From an uncultured bacterium (lineage in GTDB: Bacteria; Patescibacteriota; Minisyncoccia; UBA6257; 2-01-FULL-56-20), in NCBI GenBank assembly GCA_963844965.1, contig CAWJQC010000004.1:64001-128000 (forward strand): DNA of 64,000 nt, read 5' to 3'. Shown here in pieces: positions 2,683 through 64,000 of this stretch. The position numbers and the translations under genes were made by a program. Each line of letters starts with the position of its first letter. Positions within the stretch are counted from its first letter, which is position 1. The notes beneath the pieces are model-generated. The model did not search any database. It was not told the origin of the DNA and saw only the letters and a program-made list of their open reading frames with translations.

Positions 2683-3246
2683 TTATGCCGGGGCCGTTGT
2701 CGCCGCTCCGGCTTTTTTGCCGACTTTTCGCTTTATTACCTCGCCGCGATAGTGTATCCCCTTTCCCTTATATGGTTCGGGCTTCTTCAGCGCCCTGATA
2801 TTCGCGGCCACCTTGCCGACCAGATCTTTATCAATGCCGGAAATCTTTATCGCGTTCTTCTCTACCACTACGGCAATGCCTTCCGGAATTTTCAGGCGAA
2901 CCGGTTGCGCGTACCCCAAGAAAAGAACAAGCTCGTTCTTTTCGGTTTGAGCGCGATAGCCAACGCCCTCAATTTCCAGATTCTTCTCAAAGCCATTTGT
3001 GACTCCCTCAACGGAATTTTTAACCAGAGACCAAGCCGTGCCAGCAAGCGCCCGAGCGCGTCCCTCGTTGTCAGTTCCTTCGATCCGGATATCCTCACCC
3101 TCTACCTTAACACGAATTCCCGGATTGACGGCAATCTTTATTTCCCCGCGAGGTCCCTTAAAGATCAAAAAGGAACCCTCGTTTTTCACGGTAACGCCCG
3201 GCGGTAATTTGACTGGTTTTTTGATTAAACGGCTCATTGATAACAA
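2683..3246 (-). CDS. rplF: 50S ribosomal protein L6
   Basis: 187 aa; two-domain L6 pattern ([12 protein letters not shown] ... [14 protein letters not shown]). Confidence 0.9.
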
Positions 3247-4000: not shown

Positions 4001-4519
4001 TCATTTCTTCTTTAGCGGCAATCCTAACTCCCTAAATTTCTCTATCGCCCATTGCCGATCTTTCTTGCGCGGAACGATGCTCACTCCCAACGAAAAAGAG
4101 AGTGGCGATTCTTCCGGCTTCACTTCAGGAAAAACAAATTGTTCTTTAAAGCCGACGTTCAGAACGCCTCCGCGATCAACCGCGCCAAGATCTACCCCCC
4201 TGAAATCTCGGACCCTTGGCCATACTATCTTAACCAAGCGCTCAAAAAAATCAACCATTTTTCCGCGCCTTAATGTAGCTTTCAAGCCGACGATCTGGCC
4301 TTCGCGCACCTTGAAGCCGGATATCGATTTTTTGGCGCGCCTTACCTGAGGCTTCTGGCCCGCAATGAGCGCGATGTCGCGCGATACCTGCGGCAGCCCC
4401 CTTTCCTCAAAGTTGGGGTTTTGAGCTGCGCGACCCACGCCGGCGTCAATGACGATCTTCTCTAAAAACTGTGTTACACGCCGACTGTTCTCGGATTGTT
4501 TTGGCTGTTCGTATTTCAT
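4001..4519 (-). CDS. rplE: 50S ribosomal protein L5 (start at MKYEQPKQSE)
   Basis: L5 motifs KIVIDAGVGRA ... VGFKEQFVFPE. The ORF-track upstream extension overlaps rplX and is unlikely to be real. Confidence 0.85.
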   Translation of the reverse strand: MKYEQPKQSENSRRVTQFLEKIVIDAGVGRAAQNPNFEERGLPQVSRDIALIAGQKPQVRRAKKSISGFKVREGQIVGLKATLRRGKMVDFFERLVKIVWPRVRDFRGVDLGAVDRGGVLNVGFKEQFVFPEVKPEESPLSFSLGVSIVPRKKDRQWAIEKFRELGLPLKKK

Positions 4520-4520
4520 T

Positions 4521-4826
4521 TTATGTTGTGGCATTACATTTCTTGCAATATCGGACTTTTCGCCCAGATTCAAAACGGTAACCAACGCGCGTCGCTTTCT
4601 TGCAACCTGAACATACCAGCATCACCTTGGATGCCGGCATCGGACGCGGAACCATGACCGTTTCGCCTTTCTGCCCCTGTCTCTTCGGACGCACGCGCTT
4701 CTTATAGAGATTTAGTCCTTCAACGGTAGCGCGTCCATCGTCTGGAAAAACATTCAAAACGGTGCCGCTTTTGCCGCGATCTTTGCCGGATAATATTTTA
4801 ACTTGGTCGCCTTTCTTTATGTGCAT
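4521..4826 (-). CDS. rplX: 50S ribosomal protein L24 (with Cys4 motif)
   Basis: 101 aa; KOW-type N-terminus GDQVKILSGKDRGKSGTV; C-terminus VCSGCKK...RYCKKC. Confidence 0.85.
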   Translation of the reverse strand: MHIKKGDQVKILSGKDRGKSGTVLNVFPDDGRATVEGLNLYKKRVRPKRQGQKGETVMVPRPMPASKVMLVCSGCKKATRVGYRFESGRKVRYCKKCNATT

Positions 4827-5542: not shown

Positions 5543-5752
5543 TTATTTGTTGCCGTTATTTTCGGCCTCGCGCATGAAGGTAAGCACCCTCGCGATATCT
5601 CTGCGCAGTTTTCTTAATTCTTCCACGTTCTTGACCTTGCCGGCTGCCAAATCAAACTTCAAAACTCTTAGGCGCTCTCTCCACTCCTTGAGGAGTTTCG
5701 CAAGTTCCGGCATCGGCTTGGTTTTTAATTCTTGGATCTCTTTACGTTTCAT
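5543..5752 (-). CDS. rpmC: 50S ribosomal protein L29
   Basis: 69 aa helical; ELKTKPMPELAKLLKEWRERLRVLKF pattern of L29. Confidence 0.85.
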   Translation of the reverse strand: MKRKEIQELKTKPMPELAKLLKEWRERLRVLKFDLAAGKVKNVEELRKLRRDIARVLTFMREAENNGNK

Positions 5753-5756
5753 ATCG

Positions 5757-6168
5757 TTATTTACTAATGACCTTGCTTTTGAACGGCAGTTTATATCCGG
5801 CGAGGCGCAGGGCTTCCTTTGCCATATCCCCGTCCACGCCGTCTATTTCAAATATAACCCGACCGGGCTTCACGGGGAATACGTAGTGGTCAACGCTTCC
5901 TTTCCCGCCGCCCATGGTGGTTTCCGGCGGCCGCATGGTGACCGGCTTATCCGGGAAAACGCGTATCCAGAGCCGGCCGCTGCGCTTCAAGTGATTCGTA
6001 ATGGTTTTCCTCGCAGCTTCAATCTGCTTGGAATTCAACCACGACGGCTCAAGCGCCTTCAGACCGTACTCGCCGTAATTCAACCCCAAACCGCGCGTTT
6101 CCACCGGCGCGCTTGCGCGACCTGCCCTTTTGCCACTTCCTATGTTTTACTTTTTTGGGAATCAACAT
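5757..6168 (-). CDS. rplP: 50S ribosomal protein L16, interrupted by a frameshift near 6100-6125
   Basis: The canonical N-terminus [22 protein letters not shown] is encoded from ATG (rc of 6166-6168) in a different frame from the ORF-track body (V)[18 protein letters not shown]...[22 protein letters not shown]. Confidence 0.8.
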
Positions 6169-23829: not shown

Positions 23830-23902
23830 GTCCCTGTAGCTCAACGGATAGAGCGTGTGGCTTCGAACCACAAGGTTGCAGGTTCAAATCCTGCCAGGGA
23901 CG
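23830..23902 (+). tRNA. tRNA-Arg (anticodon TCG)
   Basis: Hand-folded cloverleaf: acceptor GTCCCTG/CAGGGAC, D-arm GCTC-AACGGATA-GAGC, anticodon arm TGTGG-CTTCGAA-CCACA, T-arm GCAGG-TTCAAAT-CCTGC, discriminator G, no encoded CCA. It is flanked by the inverted repeat CCCACCTTTG / CAAAGGTGGG. Confidence 0.85.
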
Positions 23903-23924
23903 CAAAGGTGGGAGGGTGAAGATA

Positions 23925-23990
23925 TCATATGTGGCTTCGAACCACAGGTTCCAGGTTCGAGTCCTGGCGAGGGCACACACAACATTTCGT
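23925..23990 (+). other. Partial tRNA-Arg(TCG)-like fragment (anticodon arm plus T-arm, no 5' acceptor or D-arm)
   Basis: GTGGC-TTCGAAC-CACAG plus CCAGG-TTCGAGT-CCTGG plus CGAGGGCAC, with no complementary 5' acceptor strand upstream. Confidence 0.5.
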
Positions 23991-24491: not shown

Positions 24492-25886
24492 CTATTTCTG
24501 CAAGCTCAGAATTTTATTCCTGAACGTCAACTTACTCTTGAAGCAAGATAGCAATTCGCGTTTCTCGACCGTGCTGCCCTTTTTGAGAAGATATTTTGCG
24601 TACGTTTTAAGGTCAATTTCTTTAGTGGCCGCTTTCGATCCTTCTCCCAAGACATCGTTCGCGAATTTGCGATATCGTTCCATCTCGTCTTCGAATTTCT
24701 TCTGCATCCCAATCTCACTGATATCCATCTCGTCAATGATAGCGAGAAGTTGAGCGATCAATTCCTCTTCGCGAATGTATCCGCACTTGCAATCCTTATC
24801 TTTCGAGCGTGAGCATCCATAGTACACGTACCGCGCCGTCGTTCCATCCTTGTGCGCCTTATATTTCTCGCACGCACTGATGCCCGATCCGCATAGGCCG
24901 CACGAGATCAGTTTCGTAAACGAAAATTCCTTTATCTCCGACCTGATGACAAAATCTCGGTGCAGCTGCTCCTGTACTTTATCGAACAGCTCCCGCGAAA
25001 TGATTGCTTCGTGCTTGCCGCTGTACCAGTTACCGCTCTTCAGTGGATACTCAAAGATGCCGCAGTAAAATGGATTTTTGAGGATGATATAAATATTGGA
25101 TAACGAAAGCACTTTCCCATTCTTTGTTCTGAATTTGATTTCCGACTTCAGCCAATGATAAAGCTTCCGGCCCGACCATTGTTCGTCGGCGACTTTCTGG
25201 AGCATTTGCTTGATGACGGGCGCTCGCAGGGGATCAATGATAACTTCACAAGGACGGTCGGTGCTCTTCTCGTTAAGATACCCTGTCGGTGCGATAGACG
25301 GACGCAAACCTTGTTCGCACCGCATCCGTAATCCGCGCTTCACGTTTTCCGATTTGTTATCATTCTCAAGTTTCGCTTGGCTGCACAAAATCATCAACAT
25401 GAATTTCTCGCTCGGCGAGTTCGTGAATTTCTGGCTGAAGGTTCTGATCTCGATAAGTAATTTTTGATCCATCAAGTCCACCAAGCCGCCAAGGTCGCCC
25501 GCGTTGCGGCTCAAGCGATCCGGCGCCCATGTAAGGATACCGTTGAATTCGCCGGAACGAATATCAATAAGCAACTCGTTAAAAATTTTTCGCTGGCCGA
25601 CAGCTTTTGCGGAATGGCTTTCCTTTCTAACTTCGGCGATCTCAAGGTTATCGCGCTCGGCGATTTTCAGCATCTCCTTTATCTGACTATCAATGGAAAG
25701 CACTTGCTGTTCCTCGCTCTCCGTACTTTTCCTCGCATAGAGGCAGTATTTTATTTTTATCGCTTCGGCCTTTGTCGCAGAAACGCCCGACTGATCCCAG
25801 CCCTTTGGTATATTTGTTATTTTCTCCATACCTAAGGGATGCCGCAACGGCGGAAGGAGTCCAGAGCATCCTTGTCGGTAACTCAA
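24492..25886 (-). mobile_element. Large serine recombinase (resolvase catalytic domain, recombinase domain, zinc ribbon)
   Basis: YCLYARKSTESEEQQVLSIDSQ catalytic-Ser motif, large-recombinase middle domain, C-terminal Cys cluster CGLCGSG...YGCSRSKDKDCKCGY. About 590 bp from tRNA-Arg. Confidence 0.8.
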
Positions 25887-30561: not shown

Positions 30562-31231
30562 CTGGAAAAATTAAGGATAAATTTGGTGCGGGTTAGACGC
30601 CGCAGCTCTCCTCTTACAACCGCGTAGCGAGGCGAGGATAAAAATCGCCAATTTTTATTTTCGCCGAGCGAGCGGGTGGCGAAACAGGTTTTCGCAGGAA
30701 AAGGTTCCAGGTTCAAGTCCCTGCTTGCCAGCAGGCAGGCAGGTGGGCGGACACAGAATCGAGGATCTCCGGCAGCTCACCTCTTTTTTATTGACAACAC
30801 ACACGTTATTTTTTAATCTAAACAGTAGCGTCTGTTAAAAATTAAAAATCGGGAGCGGCAATGTATAGTCTGTTTGGAAGATTCGAGCGGATAGGCGAAG
30901 CGAAATATTCCGCCGAGGAAATCTGTCTTTTCCGGTTAATCGACCTTCTATTACATCGCGGATGGAGATTCCTGGGATGCCTGTGGAACGGCAAAAAATA
31001 TAAGATAAAAATAAAAAATCTCCGCACCGGCAAAAAACGCTCTTTCAAATCAGGACGCCCATATTGGCTCTCAAGCGATGCCGACGGAAATTTATTCTAA
31101 CCCCACCGAATGAACAGGTGGGTTTTTGTTTTGGGGTAAATTTGGTATAATATGTGCGCGATGTGCTTGGCTCATATTGGGAAAACGTGGCGCCGGACAC
31201 CGAACAAATTCCGTTCTATGTATAAATCATT

Positions 31232-59178: not shown

Positions 59179-60014
59179 TGGCCTACCGCCCAGAACTTGT
59201 AAAATTGGTTTCGGAACGGGAAACCGAGGAGAAAGTGAAAAAACTCAGAAAGTTCATAGAAAACGCCGCAGCCGCGGATCGAAAAGAGGGTGTCCCAGTC
59301 GACACGGAGGGGCGGGTTGACATGCGGGCATTTCGCGGCCTGTATGCCGACGTTGAAAAAGACCGGGCAAACGTGCAAATGTGGTTTAAAGAAGAATTCT
59401 CCAAGAAACAGCCCGGTCAATCAGAAGGCCAATTTACGCGCGACGGAGAAAAATTGGAGCTGCTTATCCACGCCATTCTGTATAAAAATCTCCGCTCGGA
59501 ATACATCGTCGCGCGTTCAGCGCTTTTTGACGATATACATGGGGGTATAGATAACGGTCTTTTTGATAAAGAAACCGGCAGTCCGATTTGCGTGTTTGAC
59601 GATGTTGGCGATACTAACGATGAAAGATACAGGGACAAACAAAGTGGCGTTAAGAAACTCAACCTTGAAAAAGGGGGTGCCGACCTGAAATATGGGCTGA
59701 GGATGGAGAACGTGGGTGGTAAGAAAAAAATCGTGCCAAGCGCCGTTAGCAATATTCCTATTTTCTACATTGCCCTCCCCAAGGTTATGATCGATAGGGG
59801 CTTGAAGGAATTTGCTCCGTCACCAACAGAACAATCGGAATTTGAGAAAAAATTATTTGAATATATCTTGAAAGCTATGATGATTCAAATCAAAGATCTT
59901 GAAGTGTATATGCACAGCGGACGTCTCAATCAAAATCTGAGCGACAGGATCGCCGCCTTCAAAAAGACAATCATATCTCTCCAGGCCGCGAAAAGTTATC
60001 AGGCCGCGGCATAA
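59178..60014 (+). CDS. Hypothetical protein (278 aa)
   Basis: ORF only; start overlaps the rpmB stop. Confidence 0.4.
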   Translation: MAYRPELVKLVSERETEEKVKKLRKFIENAAAADRKEGVPVDTEGRVDMRAFRGLYADVEKDRANVQMWFKEEFSKKQPGQSEGQFTRDGEKLELLIHAILYKNLRSEYIVARSALFDDIHGGIDNGLFDKETGSPICVFDDVGDTNDERYRDKQSGVKKLNLEKGGADLKYGLRMENVGGKKKIVPSAVSNIPIFYIALPKVMIDRGLKEFAPSPTEQSEFEKKLFEYILKAMMIQIKDLEVYMHSGRLNQNLSDRIAAFKKTIISLQAAKSYQAAA

Positions 60015-60085
60015 CGGCGGTCAAAAACGGAGTATCGTATAATGGTAGTGCCTGCCGGCAGGCAGGCACATGCATGGCCCAGCAC

Positions 60086-60154
60086 TAAAATTTTCGGGCT
60101 GTAGTATAGCGGCAGTACGCACCCTTGGGGTGGGTGTAGACCGGGTTCGACTCC
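60086..60154 (+). tRNA. tRNA-Pro (anticodon GGG)
   Basis: Acceptor GGGCTGT/GCAGCCC, anticodon arm CACCC-TTGGGGT-GGGTG, T-arm CCGGG-TTCGACT-CCCGG (one nucleotide short, possibly an indel), discriminator G. Its last two nucleotides overlap the start of a 159-bp inverted repeat. Confidence 0.7.
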
Positions 60155-60311
60155 CGGCAGCCCGACATAACGGAACTTGCATCAACTTTTTCAAAATCAA
60201 CGCGCTCGCTTCGCTCGCTGTCTTTATGCACGAGGGGCAAATGGAGAAGCAAATCCGTAACTACTTTCCATTCGTCTTTCCAATCCCAAAAAATTTCCCT
60301 GTCCCGCAGGC

Positions 60312-61686
60312 GGCGGTTCGTTCCGATTTTCCCCGCAAAGGATTTTATGGCGTCGAATTCTTCGGACGAAGCCAGTTTTGCCGCGTGAAACGCGGATATA
60401 ATCCATTCCCGCAATGGTTCGATCCAATAGTTTCCCCTCCGCCCGCAATCATCATTCTGCTTGGACAAGGAAACTTTAGTTTTGATAAGCTCGTCCTTTT
60501 TGGCAAGATAGATTTCTTTTTCAATTGAGCCGTCCAAAAAGGCGTTCACGAGCTTGTCTAATTTCTGCTCGGTTTCCTTGAGTTGGGTTTCGAGATTGCG
60601 GGCGGAATTCTCCGAAGATTGGATGCCTTCTTTTTCCCACGCTTCCACTTGAACCAGCATTTTCTCTTTCCAATCTTCGGGGATGGCGACCTCCGAGATT
60701 TTCTCTTTGAGCTGTTGCACGAGTAAATCTTCGCGCAGATAGCTTTGTGAACACGGGCCAAGCCGTTTCGTACAGCGATAATACTTGTAGAGGCCGCCGT
60801 TCCCTTTCGCGTATTGGGCGGTGATGGCCGCGCCGCACTCGCCGCAGGTGAGCAATCCGGTGAACGGGAAATAATGACGCTTCTTGGAGTGGCGCGGCTT
60901 GGCTTTGTTCCTCAAAACCTCCTGCACTTTCTTGAAGGTCGCCTCGGGAACTATCGGCAGGAAATTGCCGACATAGCTCTCGCCGTTGTGTTTTATCACT
61001 CCGAGATAGGCGGAGTTCGTGAGCATCCGTTGGAGCGTGGCCTTCGGCATGGGATTTCCCGTACCGCTCACGATGCCGAAAAACTGGAAGCGGGCGGCGA
61101 GCGTCTTTAGGGTGTGCCTCCCTTCGGCGTATTCCTCAAAAACTTTTCTGATGATTCTCGCCCGCACGGGGTCGGGTTCGATGTTCCGCGTCTTGGGATT
61201 GTTGAGGTAACCGAAGGGGGCTTTGGTCGGCCACTCGCCGCGCCGCAATTTCTGCCGGATGCCGCGCTTCACGTTCTCGGAAAGGTTATCGCTGTAATAC
61301 TTGGACTGGCCGAAGGCGACCTGCAACATGAAAAGTCCCTGCGGGGTCGGCTCAAACCAGAACGTCGGGAACTTCAGCGAGGCAATCTTCTGGGTATCGA
61401 TGAGGTAGATGATTTGGCCGCCGTCTATGGAGTTGCGAGCCAATCGGTCGGGATGCCACGCCAATATGCCGACGGGTTCTTTGCTCTCGTGAATTTTCTT
61501 GATAAGGTCGCCGAACACTTCCCTGCCCGGACTTTTCGCGCTCTTGCTCTCGATGAAGGTCTCGATAATCTTTATATGTTCCCGTTTAGCGAACTCGGCA
61601 AGCTCCGCGAGTTGGGCTTCAATGCTCATCACCTGCCGTTCCTCGTCCTCGGTGGACTTGCGGGCATAGAGGAAATATGGGGTCAT
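60312..61686 (-). CDS. Large serine recombinase (body; the C-terminus continues into the left IR, and the annotated tail beyond 60153 is read-through antisense to tRNA-Pro)
   Basis: YARKSTEDEERQVMSIEAQ catalytic motif, recombinase domain, zinc ribbon CGECGAAITAQY...YYRCTKR, coiled-coil C-terminus. Confidence 0.8.
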
Positions 61687-61759
61687 ATCAATATTATAGC
61701 GTCATCACGCCATATAGCGCAATAGTGCCCTGCCTGATACGATATTCATAAGAATACTC

Positions 61760-61963
61760 ATGGATATAGCGGCTAAATTCGGACAGAAGATAAAGAGGTT
61801 GCGATTGAGCGGAAAGATGTCTCAAGGTGGCCTCGCCAAGAAGCTCGGCGTTGGTGCTTCCTATGTCAGCAAGATAGAGCGTGGCATACAAAACGTATCT
61901 CTTAAGGGCGTGGAGAAATTAGCCGATGCGTTGGGCGTACCACCCGACCGCCTCTTGAAATAA
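61760..61963 (+). CDS. XRE-family helix-turn-helix transcriptional regulator
   Basis: 67 aa; IKRLRLSGKMSQGGLAKKLGVGASYVSKIERGIQNVSLKGVEKLADALGV, a classic HTH_3 domain. Confidence 0.7.
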   Translation: MDIAAKFGQKIKRLRLSGKMSQGGLAKKLGVGASYVSKIERGIQNVSLKGVEKLADALGVPPDRLLK

Positions 61964-62719
61964 CTGGCCTCGTCCGAAAGTTTCGGATAGATAAAATCCG
62001 CAAGGGAAAAATCGGGACAAAGATTCTTTCTTGTCGCAATTCACTTGCGACGAACCGCCGCCTGCGGGACAGGGAAATTTTTTGGGATTGGAAAGACGAA
62101 TGGAAAGTAGTTACGGATTTGCTTCTCCATTTGCCCCTCGTGCATAAAGACAGCGAGCGAAGCGAGCGCGTTGATTTTGAAAAAGTTGATGCAAGTTCCG
62201 TTATGTCGCAGTTGCTGAACGCTGTACGAACCTATTTTATCGAAAATCCGAGGGATTAGCCACCGGATTTACCCCTTCATTCACCCCTTCATTCGGGTAT
62301 GCTCGGAATGAAGGGGTAGCAAGTCCTGATTGCCCTGAAAACGCTGGGCTTTTTGACTCTCGCCGGACAAAACCAGAAGTCCTACTTCACTCCGGTTTGC
62401 CTAGTCAATCACCCCGTCAATCACGATTGACTACCCTGACGGCCATTCCGCCCTTACGAGACCTCGCTTTTCTCAAAAATCCTGACCCCCGACAATACCC
62501 CTAAACGGGTCTGTGCTCAGCCCCTCAGCCGCTCACTGTTGTTCGGGCTTCGGGGCTTCGCGTATGGCGCGCCCAAATTCCTCCCCCAACCCCTCCTTTG
62601 GGGCGCGCCGAGGGCGGTTGCGGCAACCCTTGGAACAGGGTATGGTTGAGATATCCACGCATAGGCGATGAAGCTCGCCGCAACCGCCCTTAGGGGCTGA
62701 TAGCTTCTATCTCAAAAAG

Positions 62720-62923
62720 ATGGAAGTTTTTTATTTATTGCTCATCATAGGATTAATCTTCGGCTCGCTCGGTGCGCTCATGGCCTACCTCATCACCTAC
62801 AAGGAATGGATGCATCATTACACATCGCCGAAGATTCCCCGACGTATAGCTCTTGAGACGGCGGTGTTCACACTCGTCTTTTTCATTGTGGTCGCCATGC
62901 TCGTCGGGGCATTCGTCAAATAG
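62720..62923 (+). CDS. Small two-TM membrane protein
   Basis: 67 aa, hydrophobic. Confidence 0.35.
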   Translation: MEVFYLLLIIGLIFGSLGALMAYLITYKEWMHHYTSPKIPRRIALETAVFTLVFFIVVAMLVGAFVK

Positions 62924-62959: not shown

Positions 62960-63919
62960 TTACAATATCGCGTTGAATAGATAGCCCGTAAAGACAATCC
63001 CTAACGCTACGATGCCAGCGAAAATGAGTATGAGTTTCGGCTTCATCACCTTTTTCAAAATCATGAACTCCGGCAGGGATAGCGCGGTAACGGACATCAT
63101 AAAAGCAAGTGTGGTGCCCATCGCCACGCCTTTTTCGGTTAATGCGCTCACGAGCGGAATAACGCCTGCGGCGTTGGAATAAAGCGGAATACCGATAAGG
63201 ACGGCGAGCGGCACGGCATACCACGTTCCGCCTCCTGCGTAGCGGGCGATGAGTGAGGCGGGGACGTATCCGTGAATCCACGCACCCACGCCGATGCCGA
63301 CAACGACGTACAACCAGACCCTTTTCAAAATATTCAGAACGTAATCCTTGGCGTAGACGACCCGCTCCTTCCTCGTCATGTGGGGCGAATCAAAGTTCCC
63401 ATTCGCGGCATTTTGATAGATAAACGGCTCGACCAGATTCTCCATTTTCATTTTGCCAATGATTGCTCCCGAAAGCATGGCGATGACAAGACCGCTCGTT
63501 ATATAGATTGCCGCTATCTTCCAACCGAAAAGACCAAGGAGCATCACGAGCGCAACCTCGTTAATCATCGGCGAGGCGACGAGGAAAGAGAAAGTTGTTC
63601 CTAAGGGCACGCCCGCCTGCACGAATCCCAAAAACAACGGGATGGCCGAGCAGGAGCAGAACGGCGTGACGATGCCGAGGAGCGAAGCAAGCACGTTTCC
63701 GACGTACTGTTTTTTATGCGCCAAGACCGCACGCACTTTCTCCGGCGGCAAATAGGAACGGACGATGGACACGGCGAAGATGATGACCGCAAGGAGTAGA
63801 AATATCTTCGTCGTATCAAGGATAAAGAAATCTACCGCGCTTCCAAGGAGTGTGTTCGGCGCGATGCGGAACAGGCCATAAGTCATCCAGTCGGCCAATA
63901 ACTGGAGGGGGTAAAACAT
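62960..63919 (-). CDS. Predicted permease (DUF318/ArsP-like family, CSCS motif)
   Basis: 319 aa, about 8 TM; TPFCSCSAIP motif typical of the UPF0718/ArsP permease family. Confidence 0.55.
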   Translation of the reverse strand: MFYPLQLLADWMTYGLFRIAPNTLLGSAVDFFILDTTKIFLLLAVIIFAVSIVRSYLPPEKVRAVLAHKKQYVGNVLASLLGIVTPFCSCSAIPLFLGFVQAGVPLGTTFSFLVASPMINEVALVMLLGLFGWKIAAIYITSGLVIAMLSGAIIGKMKMENLVEPFIYQNAANGNFDSPHMTRKERVVYAKDYVLNILKRVWLYVVVGIGVGAWIHGYVPASLIARYAGGGTWYAVPLAVLIGIPLYSNAAGVIPLVSALTEKGVAMGTTLAFMMSVTALSLPEFMILKKVMKPKLILIFAGIVALGIVFTGYLFNAIL

Positions 63920-64000
63920 CGTTATTTTATATTTTGGGAGATTATCTGCCTTATCTTGTCTTTGTCGGGAACCGACCCGACCAATACCGCCTTGCCATCC

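Follow-up and report, generated by a model that had tools for sequence, protein, structure and literature searches.

What kind of element carries a serine recombinase gene between perfect inverted repeats, placed exactly at the 3′ end of a transfer RNA (tRNA) gene? The question is raised by a 64,000-nucleotide stretch (hereafter the window) of contig CAWJQC010000004.1 from an uncultured bacterium of the Patescibacteriota, in which tRNA-Pro(GGG) (60095-60166, + strand, ARAGORN; Rfam RF00005 at 60095-60165, 56.7 bits) is entered from the opposite strand by the gene of a 533-residue large serine recombinase (LSR; 60085-61686, − strand). The region is probably the recombinase end of a small integrative element that was inserted at the tRNA-Pro 3′ end by its own LSR and that carries a second, inverted copy of its attachment site, attP.

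Repeat arms and half-sites at the tRNA-Pro junction

The inverted repeat is perfect over 159 nt, with a left arm at 60163-60321 and a right arm at 62050-62208 (repeat search; blastn). The initial annotation had recognized this repeat and positioned its right arm correctly, placing the left arm 10 nt too low; the left arm overlaps the final 3-4 nt of tRNA-Pro, depending on whether the ARAGORN or the Rfam end is used, and not its last two nucleotides as first described. A perfect match of 159 nt within 64 kb is not attributable to chance. The proposed check for further copies of the arm, run with blastn across the 64-kb window, found none; a 20-nt arm match at 63044-63063 lies within an ArsP coding sequence and was judged coincidental.

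tRNA-Pro is intact in the window, with the junction at its 3′ end. The tetranucleotide CGAC/GTCG (60163-60166) is common to the tRNA 3′ end and both arms, and arm identity stops there. This core is the likely site of strand exchange and spans acceptor-stem positions 71-72 and the discriminator base. As first annotated, the recombinase frame crosses the left arm and continues across the tRNA on its antisense strand: residues 1-455 are unique, the left arm supplies residues 456-508, and tRNA-Pro in antisense gives residues 509-533 (GCRESNPVYTHPKGAYCRYTTARKF).

The right arm (+ strand) is a truncated copy of the recombinase 3′ end. Recombinase residues 429-508 align to 61969-62208 with 71% identity (tblastn), and the portion inward of the right arm (61969-62049, + strand; residues 429-455) is a degenerate extension of the duplicated fragment, covered in part by a second repeat pair, I2 (38 nt, 76%). 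Outward, the right arm continues in frame into the alternative tail already noticed in the initial annotation (QLLNAVRTYFIENPRD; 62209-62259, + strand), with its stop codon at 62257-62259, and a stable hairpin (62269-62319, + strand; −25.4 kcal/mol, z = −3.6) lies right after this stop. The right arm is colinear with the 3′ end of the recombinase gene in L001, a related locus whose recombinase is 84% identical to the window protein, and window segments 62050-62419 and 62512-62588 are colinear with that 3′ end and the DNA downstream of it (blastn). Comparison with L001 and L096 extends the non-coding element DNA beyond the alternative stop by ~350 bp, to about 62608 (62260-62608, + strand; blastn). 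The block 62510-62608 at the inner end of this DNA is 95-97% identical to L001 and L096, against 77-83% for the rest of those elements; it has no Rfam match, and its folds, with z of only −1.0 and −1.9, show nothing convincing.

The two sides of the repeat differ in the spacing of a shared motif. With the outer end of the repeat as boundary, the tRNA side has YGAAC, from the T-arm, at offset 13 and the other copy is followed by CGAAC at offset 18 in 33 of 34 loci. The window is among them: its T-arm GTTCG (60145-60149; CGAAC on the − strand) is 13 nt from the junction and the tail CGAAC (62227-62231) is 18 nt from the core. Motifs bound by DNA-binding domain 2 (DBD2) of serine integrases are 5 bp nearer the centre in attB than in attP (PMC11722253). 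The 13 versus 18 offset fits this 5-bp shift, marking the tRNA side as a B-type half-site and the tail side as P-type (P′). The second P-type arm is then the repeat arm, in which a AAAATTCG-like block is conserved at roughly −26 to −18.

Read in this way, the tRNA-Pro 3′ end is assigned as the attB-derived B′ half-site, and the left arm (Pa, − strand), which is joined to the recombinase gene, forms with the tRNA an integrated junction of the type P-core-B′. The right arm (Pb) and the tail together are assigned as a complete inverted attP (P-core-P′), here called the spare attP, whose P′ arm comprises the tail and the non-coding DNA to about 62608. The 159-bp inverted repeat itself is then identified as the P arm present in both attachment sites.

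The same logic bears on the alternative tail. Homologue C-termini diverge after a conserved W-S (M-S in the window), continuing either as a QLLNxxRTYFE-type tail or as antisense translations of tRNAs; TGG, the Trp codon of this W-S, reads CCA on the opposite strand. In the conserved tail, 'RT' corresponds to the CGAAC DNA motif, and its Arg codon is fixed as CGA in 33 of 34 loci, whereas CGA accounts for 15.6% of Arg codons in the gene bodies. Because this rare codon is fixed at the CGAAC motif, conservation of the tail lies largely at the level of DNA, as the P′ half-site, and not of the peptide. The reading of QLLNxxRTYFE as a functional peptide was rejected in view of the fixed CGA/CGAAC motif and the predicted disorder of the tail.

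The recombinase family and its complete elements

A protein database search returned 7,875 proteins at E ≤ 1e-10 to the window recombinase. The best 120 homologues are 60-84% identical, many of them on contigs of just 2-4 kb, and 544 stretches of species-representative genomes encode a relative. From such genomes, 80 loci were taken, representing bins of Patescibacteria, Saccharibacteria, Omnitrophota, Bacteroidota, Planctomycetia, Nitrospirota and Gammaproteobacteria; with L001 added, 81 loci were screened for repeats. A tRNA on the opposite strand is present at the recombinase 3′ end in at least 53 of the 80 genome loci (Pro 22, Gln 9, Ser 4, Ala 4, Met 3, others rarer). An inverted repeat of 75-193 bp, mostly 97-100% identical, has one arm at the recombinase 3′ end and the other 100-600 bp upstream of the gene in ~60 of the 81 loci, including L016, L044, L045 and L053, whose contig names suggest long reads. 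As these ~60 loci come from many phyla, the inverted repeat is to be regarded, on sequence comparison, as a trait of the family and not as an artefact of the window assembly.

Two repeat-bearing loci, L044 and L045, lie on one 6.2-Mb Bacteroidales contig as related elements at tRNA-Pro(GGG) and tRNA-Pro(TGG), each with 148-bp perfect arms. One protein (P0231, of the P0032 cluster) has a hybrid tail, WSQLLNE followed by NPVNMLPKHAYYRYTTAR, which looks like a join between P′ and a tRNA at their common GAAC and not at the normal core. About one third of the genome contigs (L002-L081) end within 500 bp upstream of the recombinase start, in or beside the spare attP. Elements of this family systematically break short-read assemblies, an effect that their architecture explains. 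Viral contigs and the phage collection contain almost no members of the family: these collections gave only one 42-nt match and three weak loci, and a prophage reading was dropped.

The elements of relatives extend past the spare attP. At 17 loci a second repeat pair abuts the spare attP and encloses 1-5 kb, and in 15 of 16 such two-pair loci examined, three sites have a common core of 3-9 bp (e.g., TGGCTG or TGGTCG), which corresponds in reverse complement to the ...CCA end of the tRNA. The far site, whose flank bears no relation to the P arm, is the third of these and of the type B-core-P′, an inverted repeat of the P′ arm that closes the cargo. Locus L016 illustrates the full order: a B-core-P′ site (~166), 5.3 kb of cargo, the inverted attP (5613-5878), the recombinase gene and a P-core-B′ junction in tRNA-Gln. 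L095 and L096 present the closing site from the chromosomal side, with chromosomal genes leading into ...AAGTTGTCG joined to CAGTTAATG... and then into a P′ related to that of the window. These three-site integrated structures with a common core are consistent, at the level of sequence organization, with integration by attP × attB recombination. Locus L076 (about 840-1128, 2785-3073 and 4518-4664) has a different form: its far site retains the P arm, the common 'core' is 18 nt, and the three copies are attP-like and not B-core-P′.

The L016 cargo encodes a DNA methyltransferase, a nuclease-like protein, an ATPase and a helix-turn-helix (HTH) protein, and other cargos combine a type III-like methyltransferase with a helicase or a UvrD-like helicase with a nuclease. 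By their predicted products, the cargos of relatives are defence genes, of restriction-modification or helicase/nuclease type; no replication genes were seen among the cargos examined.

The domain composition of the window recombinase agrees with its assignment. It matches the Pfam families Resolvase, Recombinase and Zn_ribbon_recom, with the catalytic domain (PF00239, E = 7.6e-21) over residues 5-152 and further matches to PF07508 and PF13408. Among 58 homologues, the Y-x-R-x-S-T nucleophile context (Y7-A-R9-K-S11-T) is nearly invariant and C281, C284 and C305 are invariant. An AlphaFold2 (AF2) model built with these homologues predicts long helices at 337-384 and 390-416, giving a zinc ribbon with an inserted coiled coil. 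The model is confident to about residue 482, with the arm encoding a β-hairpin (455-469) and a helix (471-482), and treats residues 484-533 as disordered (predicted local distance difference test score, pLDDT, 30-40); the tail swap is predicted to alter only this disordered extension. The nearest solved structures are SPbeta SprA and the A118 integrase (best PDB E = 8e-10). By every testable feature of its sequence and predicted fold, the protein is placed in the LSR family.

The second gene of the repeat-bounded module, also noticed in the initial annotation, encodes a 67-residue XRE-family HTH protein (61760-61963, + strand; HTH_3, Pfam E = 4e-16). An HTH homologue occurs in 11 loci, divergent and 420-655 bp upstream of the recombinase gene, so beyond the spare attP. 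In the window, the open reading frame (ORF) map leaves a divergent intergenic region at 61687-61759, where the promoters of both genes would presumably lie; a scan of 59900-62800 for the sigma-70 promoter consensus found no sites. No candidate recombination directionality factor was identified for the element.

Several neighbouring features lie outside the module. A fluoride riboswitch (RF01734; 62655-62716, + strand; 47.8 bits, gathering score 34) lies just past the P′ arm, with a 67-residue membrane-protein ORF (62720-62923) directly downstream and an ArsP-type permease (62960-63919) on the strand opposite to both. A second LSR (24492-25886, − strand; 464 residues, 36% identical over residues 4-337) lies ~590 bp from tRNA-Arg(TCG) (23830-23903), and T-arm/acceptor-like fragments follow tRNA-Arg (23947-23976) and tRNA-Lys (30703-30732). 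From this setting, the second LSR may belong to another tRNA-associated island; no inverted repeat of the type described above was found at its locus.

Both orientations of the module and recombination between arms

The suggestion in the initial annotation that turning the 1.7-kb middle swaps the recombinase tail is borne out among relatives, in which both orientations occur. Loci L093 (tRNA-Pro-fused) and L085 (native tail), from separate metagenomes, are 100.000% identical over 3442 bp of cargo and P′ in inverted orientation and 100.000% identical over the 1731-bp recombinase module in direct orientation; the module has therefore flipped relative to the cargo. Six protein pairs combine zero mismatches in the ~480-residue body with differing tails, and one recombinase is found with two different tRNA sequences as well as with the native tail. 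In L050, tRNA-Pro is followed by a truncated arm and then by a recombinase gene that points away from the tRNA and ends in a native-type tail; the longest exact run between its arms is at most 44 nt, so the orientation of L050 is not an assembly ambiguity. Comparable cases are L082, with a native tail, and L083, with a tRNA tail. On flipping, four properties change: the stop codon, the hairpin after it, which way the gene is transcribed with respect to tRNA and cargo, and adjacency to an intact attP. A symmetric contig of 1419 bp (L087) was set aside as proof of both states, because a repeat longer than the assembler k-mer gives the same contig.

The arms within one element are on average 99.9% identical (minimum 97.8%), whereas identity falls to 60-67% when a given arm is compared from one element to another. 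This disparity indicates that the arms evolve in concert through ongoing recombination. Arm lengths cluster at 92-93 or 135-162 bp, and the inner arm boundary falls at T-N-R-R-L codons (CGAACCGCCG...) in the window, L016 and L089 (by eye). Inspection by eye of these same loci, at window positions 60321 and 62050 and in L016 and L089, places the start of the arms at CGAACC inside invariant G-T-N codons; this hexamer, the same as that of the half-site motif, could be an accessory binding site or a coding coincidence.

Serine recombinases exchange strands at a 2-bp crossover, which cannot homogenize 90-160 bp, and host homologous recombination or gene conversion is therefore implied. Homologous crossovers between the arms would invert the module, and integration through either attP would yield the same two states.

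Proposed cycle, alternatives and relation to known systems

In the arrangement that we consider probable, attP would lie inside the 3′ end of the recombinase gene, and integration would fuse that gene to the antisense strand of the tRNA, creating the P-core-B′ left junction. The second attP, in inverted orientation, would consist of Pb, the core and a P′ arm providing the native tail, the hairpin and ~350 bp of non-coding DNA, and a third site (B-core-P′) would close 1-5 kb of cargo, as in relatives. Recombination between the outer sites would restore the tRNA-CCA end and the flank, releasing a circle in which two inverted attP sites part the recombinase module from the cargo module. The flip could proceed through host homologous recombination across the arms or through integration of the free element by either attP, so that the recombinase gene ends again in its native tail and terminator or runs into the tRNA.

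Several observations weigh against this arrangement. No third site of the window element is present within the window; if it exists, it would lie beyond base 64000. The tRNA-fused state is found in at least 53 of the 80 genome loci and the flipped state in 1, so flipping is rare, counter-selected or followed by loss of the element; the excess would also fit, more speculatively, a tRNA-fused state that is the stable one of the two. Canonical LSRs do not recombine attP × attP or attP × attR, and the SPbeta integrase forms an unproductive synapsis of two attP sites (PMC11722253), which makes in-place inversion driven by the recombinase less likely and leaves the route of flipping to be inferred. 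Loci L089-L091, with P′ on both sides of the module, could reflect a free form but were set aside as proof of a circle, as elements integrated across many hosts could equally produce such contigs. In addition, the orientation in the window rests on the assembly, and a 159-bp repeat could in principle mislead a short-read assembler.

The spare attP might owe its presence to a regulatory role. We hold it possible, though doubtful, that the inverted attP is a built-in switch that replaces a directionality factor, integration locking the element and a flip of the module re-arming it for excision and transfer. The tRNA-fused recombinase, which lacks its native 3′ end and terminator, would then be the locked state seen in nearly all genomes, and a flip across the 159-bp arms would rebuild the native gene beside an intact attP.

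A phase-variation cassette, in which the recombinase itself would invert 60322-62049 between the cores, toggling its own C-terminus and transcription direction or the expression of a neighbour while remaining immobile, is less probable still. Both orientations are found and the arms are kept identical, as such a cassette would have it, and the recombinase lies inside the invertible segment, like hin in Salmonella. The two sites are, however, of unlike types, P-core-B′ and P-core-P′, which LSRs are not known to pair (PMC11722253), and recombinases with identical sequence are joined to different tRNAs in different hosts. The three-site structures with cargo indicate that the family is mobile, the 2-bp crossover would leave the homogenization of 159 bp to host recombination anyway, and the swapped tail is predicted to be disordered.

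An insertion sequence (IS) or transposon of 2.05 kb, bounded by 159-bp terminal inverted repeats and mobilized by the serine recombinase, was proposed in the initial annotation and is very unlikely. The perfect inverted repeats around the recombinase gene and the many metagenome contigs of 1.9-2.1 kb that hold just the repeat-bounded unit would suit it, yet such short contigs are the expected assembler output when the repeat exceeds the k-mer. The unit is present as a single copy in the window, its flanks (GGCAGCC and CAGTTGC) contain no target-site duplication, and element homology runs 400 bp past the right arm (62209-62608), so that the repeat-bounded unit is not the mobile unit. Insertion is consistently at tRNA 3′ ends with half-sites of the attP/attB type, the outer arm ends are recombination cores common to the tRNA and not transposon termini, and the element in relatives extends through 1-5 kb of cargo to the third site.

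An assembly artefact, raised at the outset as what would refute the repeat and supposing a collapsed or chimeric join of integrated and free copies whose orientation is mis-resolvable because the repeat exceeds usual k-mers (the symmetric L087 contig being an example), has hardly any likelihood given that what precedes the right arm is not the recombinase body but unique sequence resembling a decayed recombinase, that the same architecture recurs in ~60 independent assemblies, the four with long-read-like names among them, and that it also occurs in loci with diverged arms.

LSRs catalyse attP × attB integration, and excision requires a directionality factor. The enzyme of the small integrative element proposed here has the same catalytic, recombinase and zinc-ribbon/coiled-coil domains as the LSRs of phages and integrative elements (A118/LI, SPbeta SprA, Bxb1 and phiC31), with short attachment sites, a small core and the outer motif 5 bp nearer the centre in the B-type half-site. 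Unlike the phage enzymes, this family has attP within its own coding 3′ end, targets the acceptor/T-arm end of tRNAs, carries a second complete inverted attP, has no evident directionality factor, is distant in sequence and is almost absent from viral contigs.

The temperate mycobacteriophages offer a functional parallel in integration-dependent gene truncation, with attP inside the repressor gene and tyrosine integrases. In both cases attP in a coding 3′ end means that integration alters the C-terminus of a product; the mycobacteriophages differ in that the repressor is the protein affected, the integrase is a tyrosine recombinase, and no inverted spare site restores an alternative end. Hin, Gin and Cin are small invertases (~190 residues, C-terminal HTH) acting on two equivalent 26-bp sites with a Fis-dependent enhancer, and hin sits inside its own invertible segment, whose flip alters expression. 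They share with the present system a serine recombinase and a segment between inverted sites, a functional analogy only: the enzyme described here is a 533-residue LSR, its sites are of unequal type, and the unit is part of a mobile element.

The yeast 2-micron plasmid carries FLP/FRT in 599-bp inverted repeats, exists as both isomers and uses inversion for copy-number amplification. The proposed circle resembles it, again by functional analogy only, in having two long inverted repeats with recombination sites that would separate two unique regions, one encoding the recombinase; it differs in that FLP is a tyrosine recombinase and the plasmid replicates in a eukaryote.

An attachment site in the 3′ end of an integrase gene that reads through in antisense has its nearest precedent in the Dehalococcoides ssrA islands, whose DsiB is a ~540-residue serine integrase. 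The DsiB gene always overlaps the attachment site at its 3′ end and reads antisense into the end of the tRNA-like gene, with its stop codon outside the island; the authors suggest that perhaps only the circular form carries the gene complete (PMC3146451). The likeness described here is one of arrangement. The DsiB islands target transfer-messenger RNA, have direct repeats only, the word 'inverted' being absent from the paper, and encode a second, small serine recombinase, DsiA (PMC3146451). A full-text search of a limited literature set, in which absence is absence of evidence only, yielded no paper that describes this recombinase family or a second attP in inverted orientation.

The family combines three traits that merit attention: a conserved target at the tRNA T-arm and acceptor end, an attP inside the gene of the enzyme itself, and a second, inverted attP whose arms evolve in concert. 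What is known of the natural biology of serine integrases, which are valued as genome-engineering tools, comes mainly from phages. The present family appears very large, spanning Patescibacteria, Omnitrophota, Saccharibacteria, Bacteroidota, Planctomycetota and others, and the fusion of identical recombinases to the tRNAs of different hosts points to very recent transfer between hosts. It raises the question of how integration and excision are controlled in a minimal element with no evident directionality factor. If the spare attP does act as a switch, the answer would be a mobility cycle controlled by DNA inversion, in a promiscuous family that recognizes the tRNA T-arm and moves defence genes between phyla.

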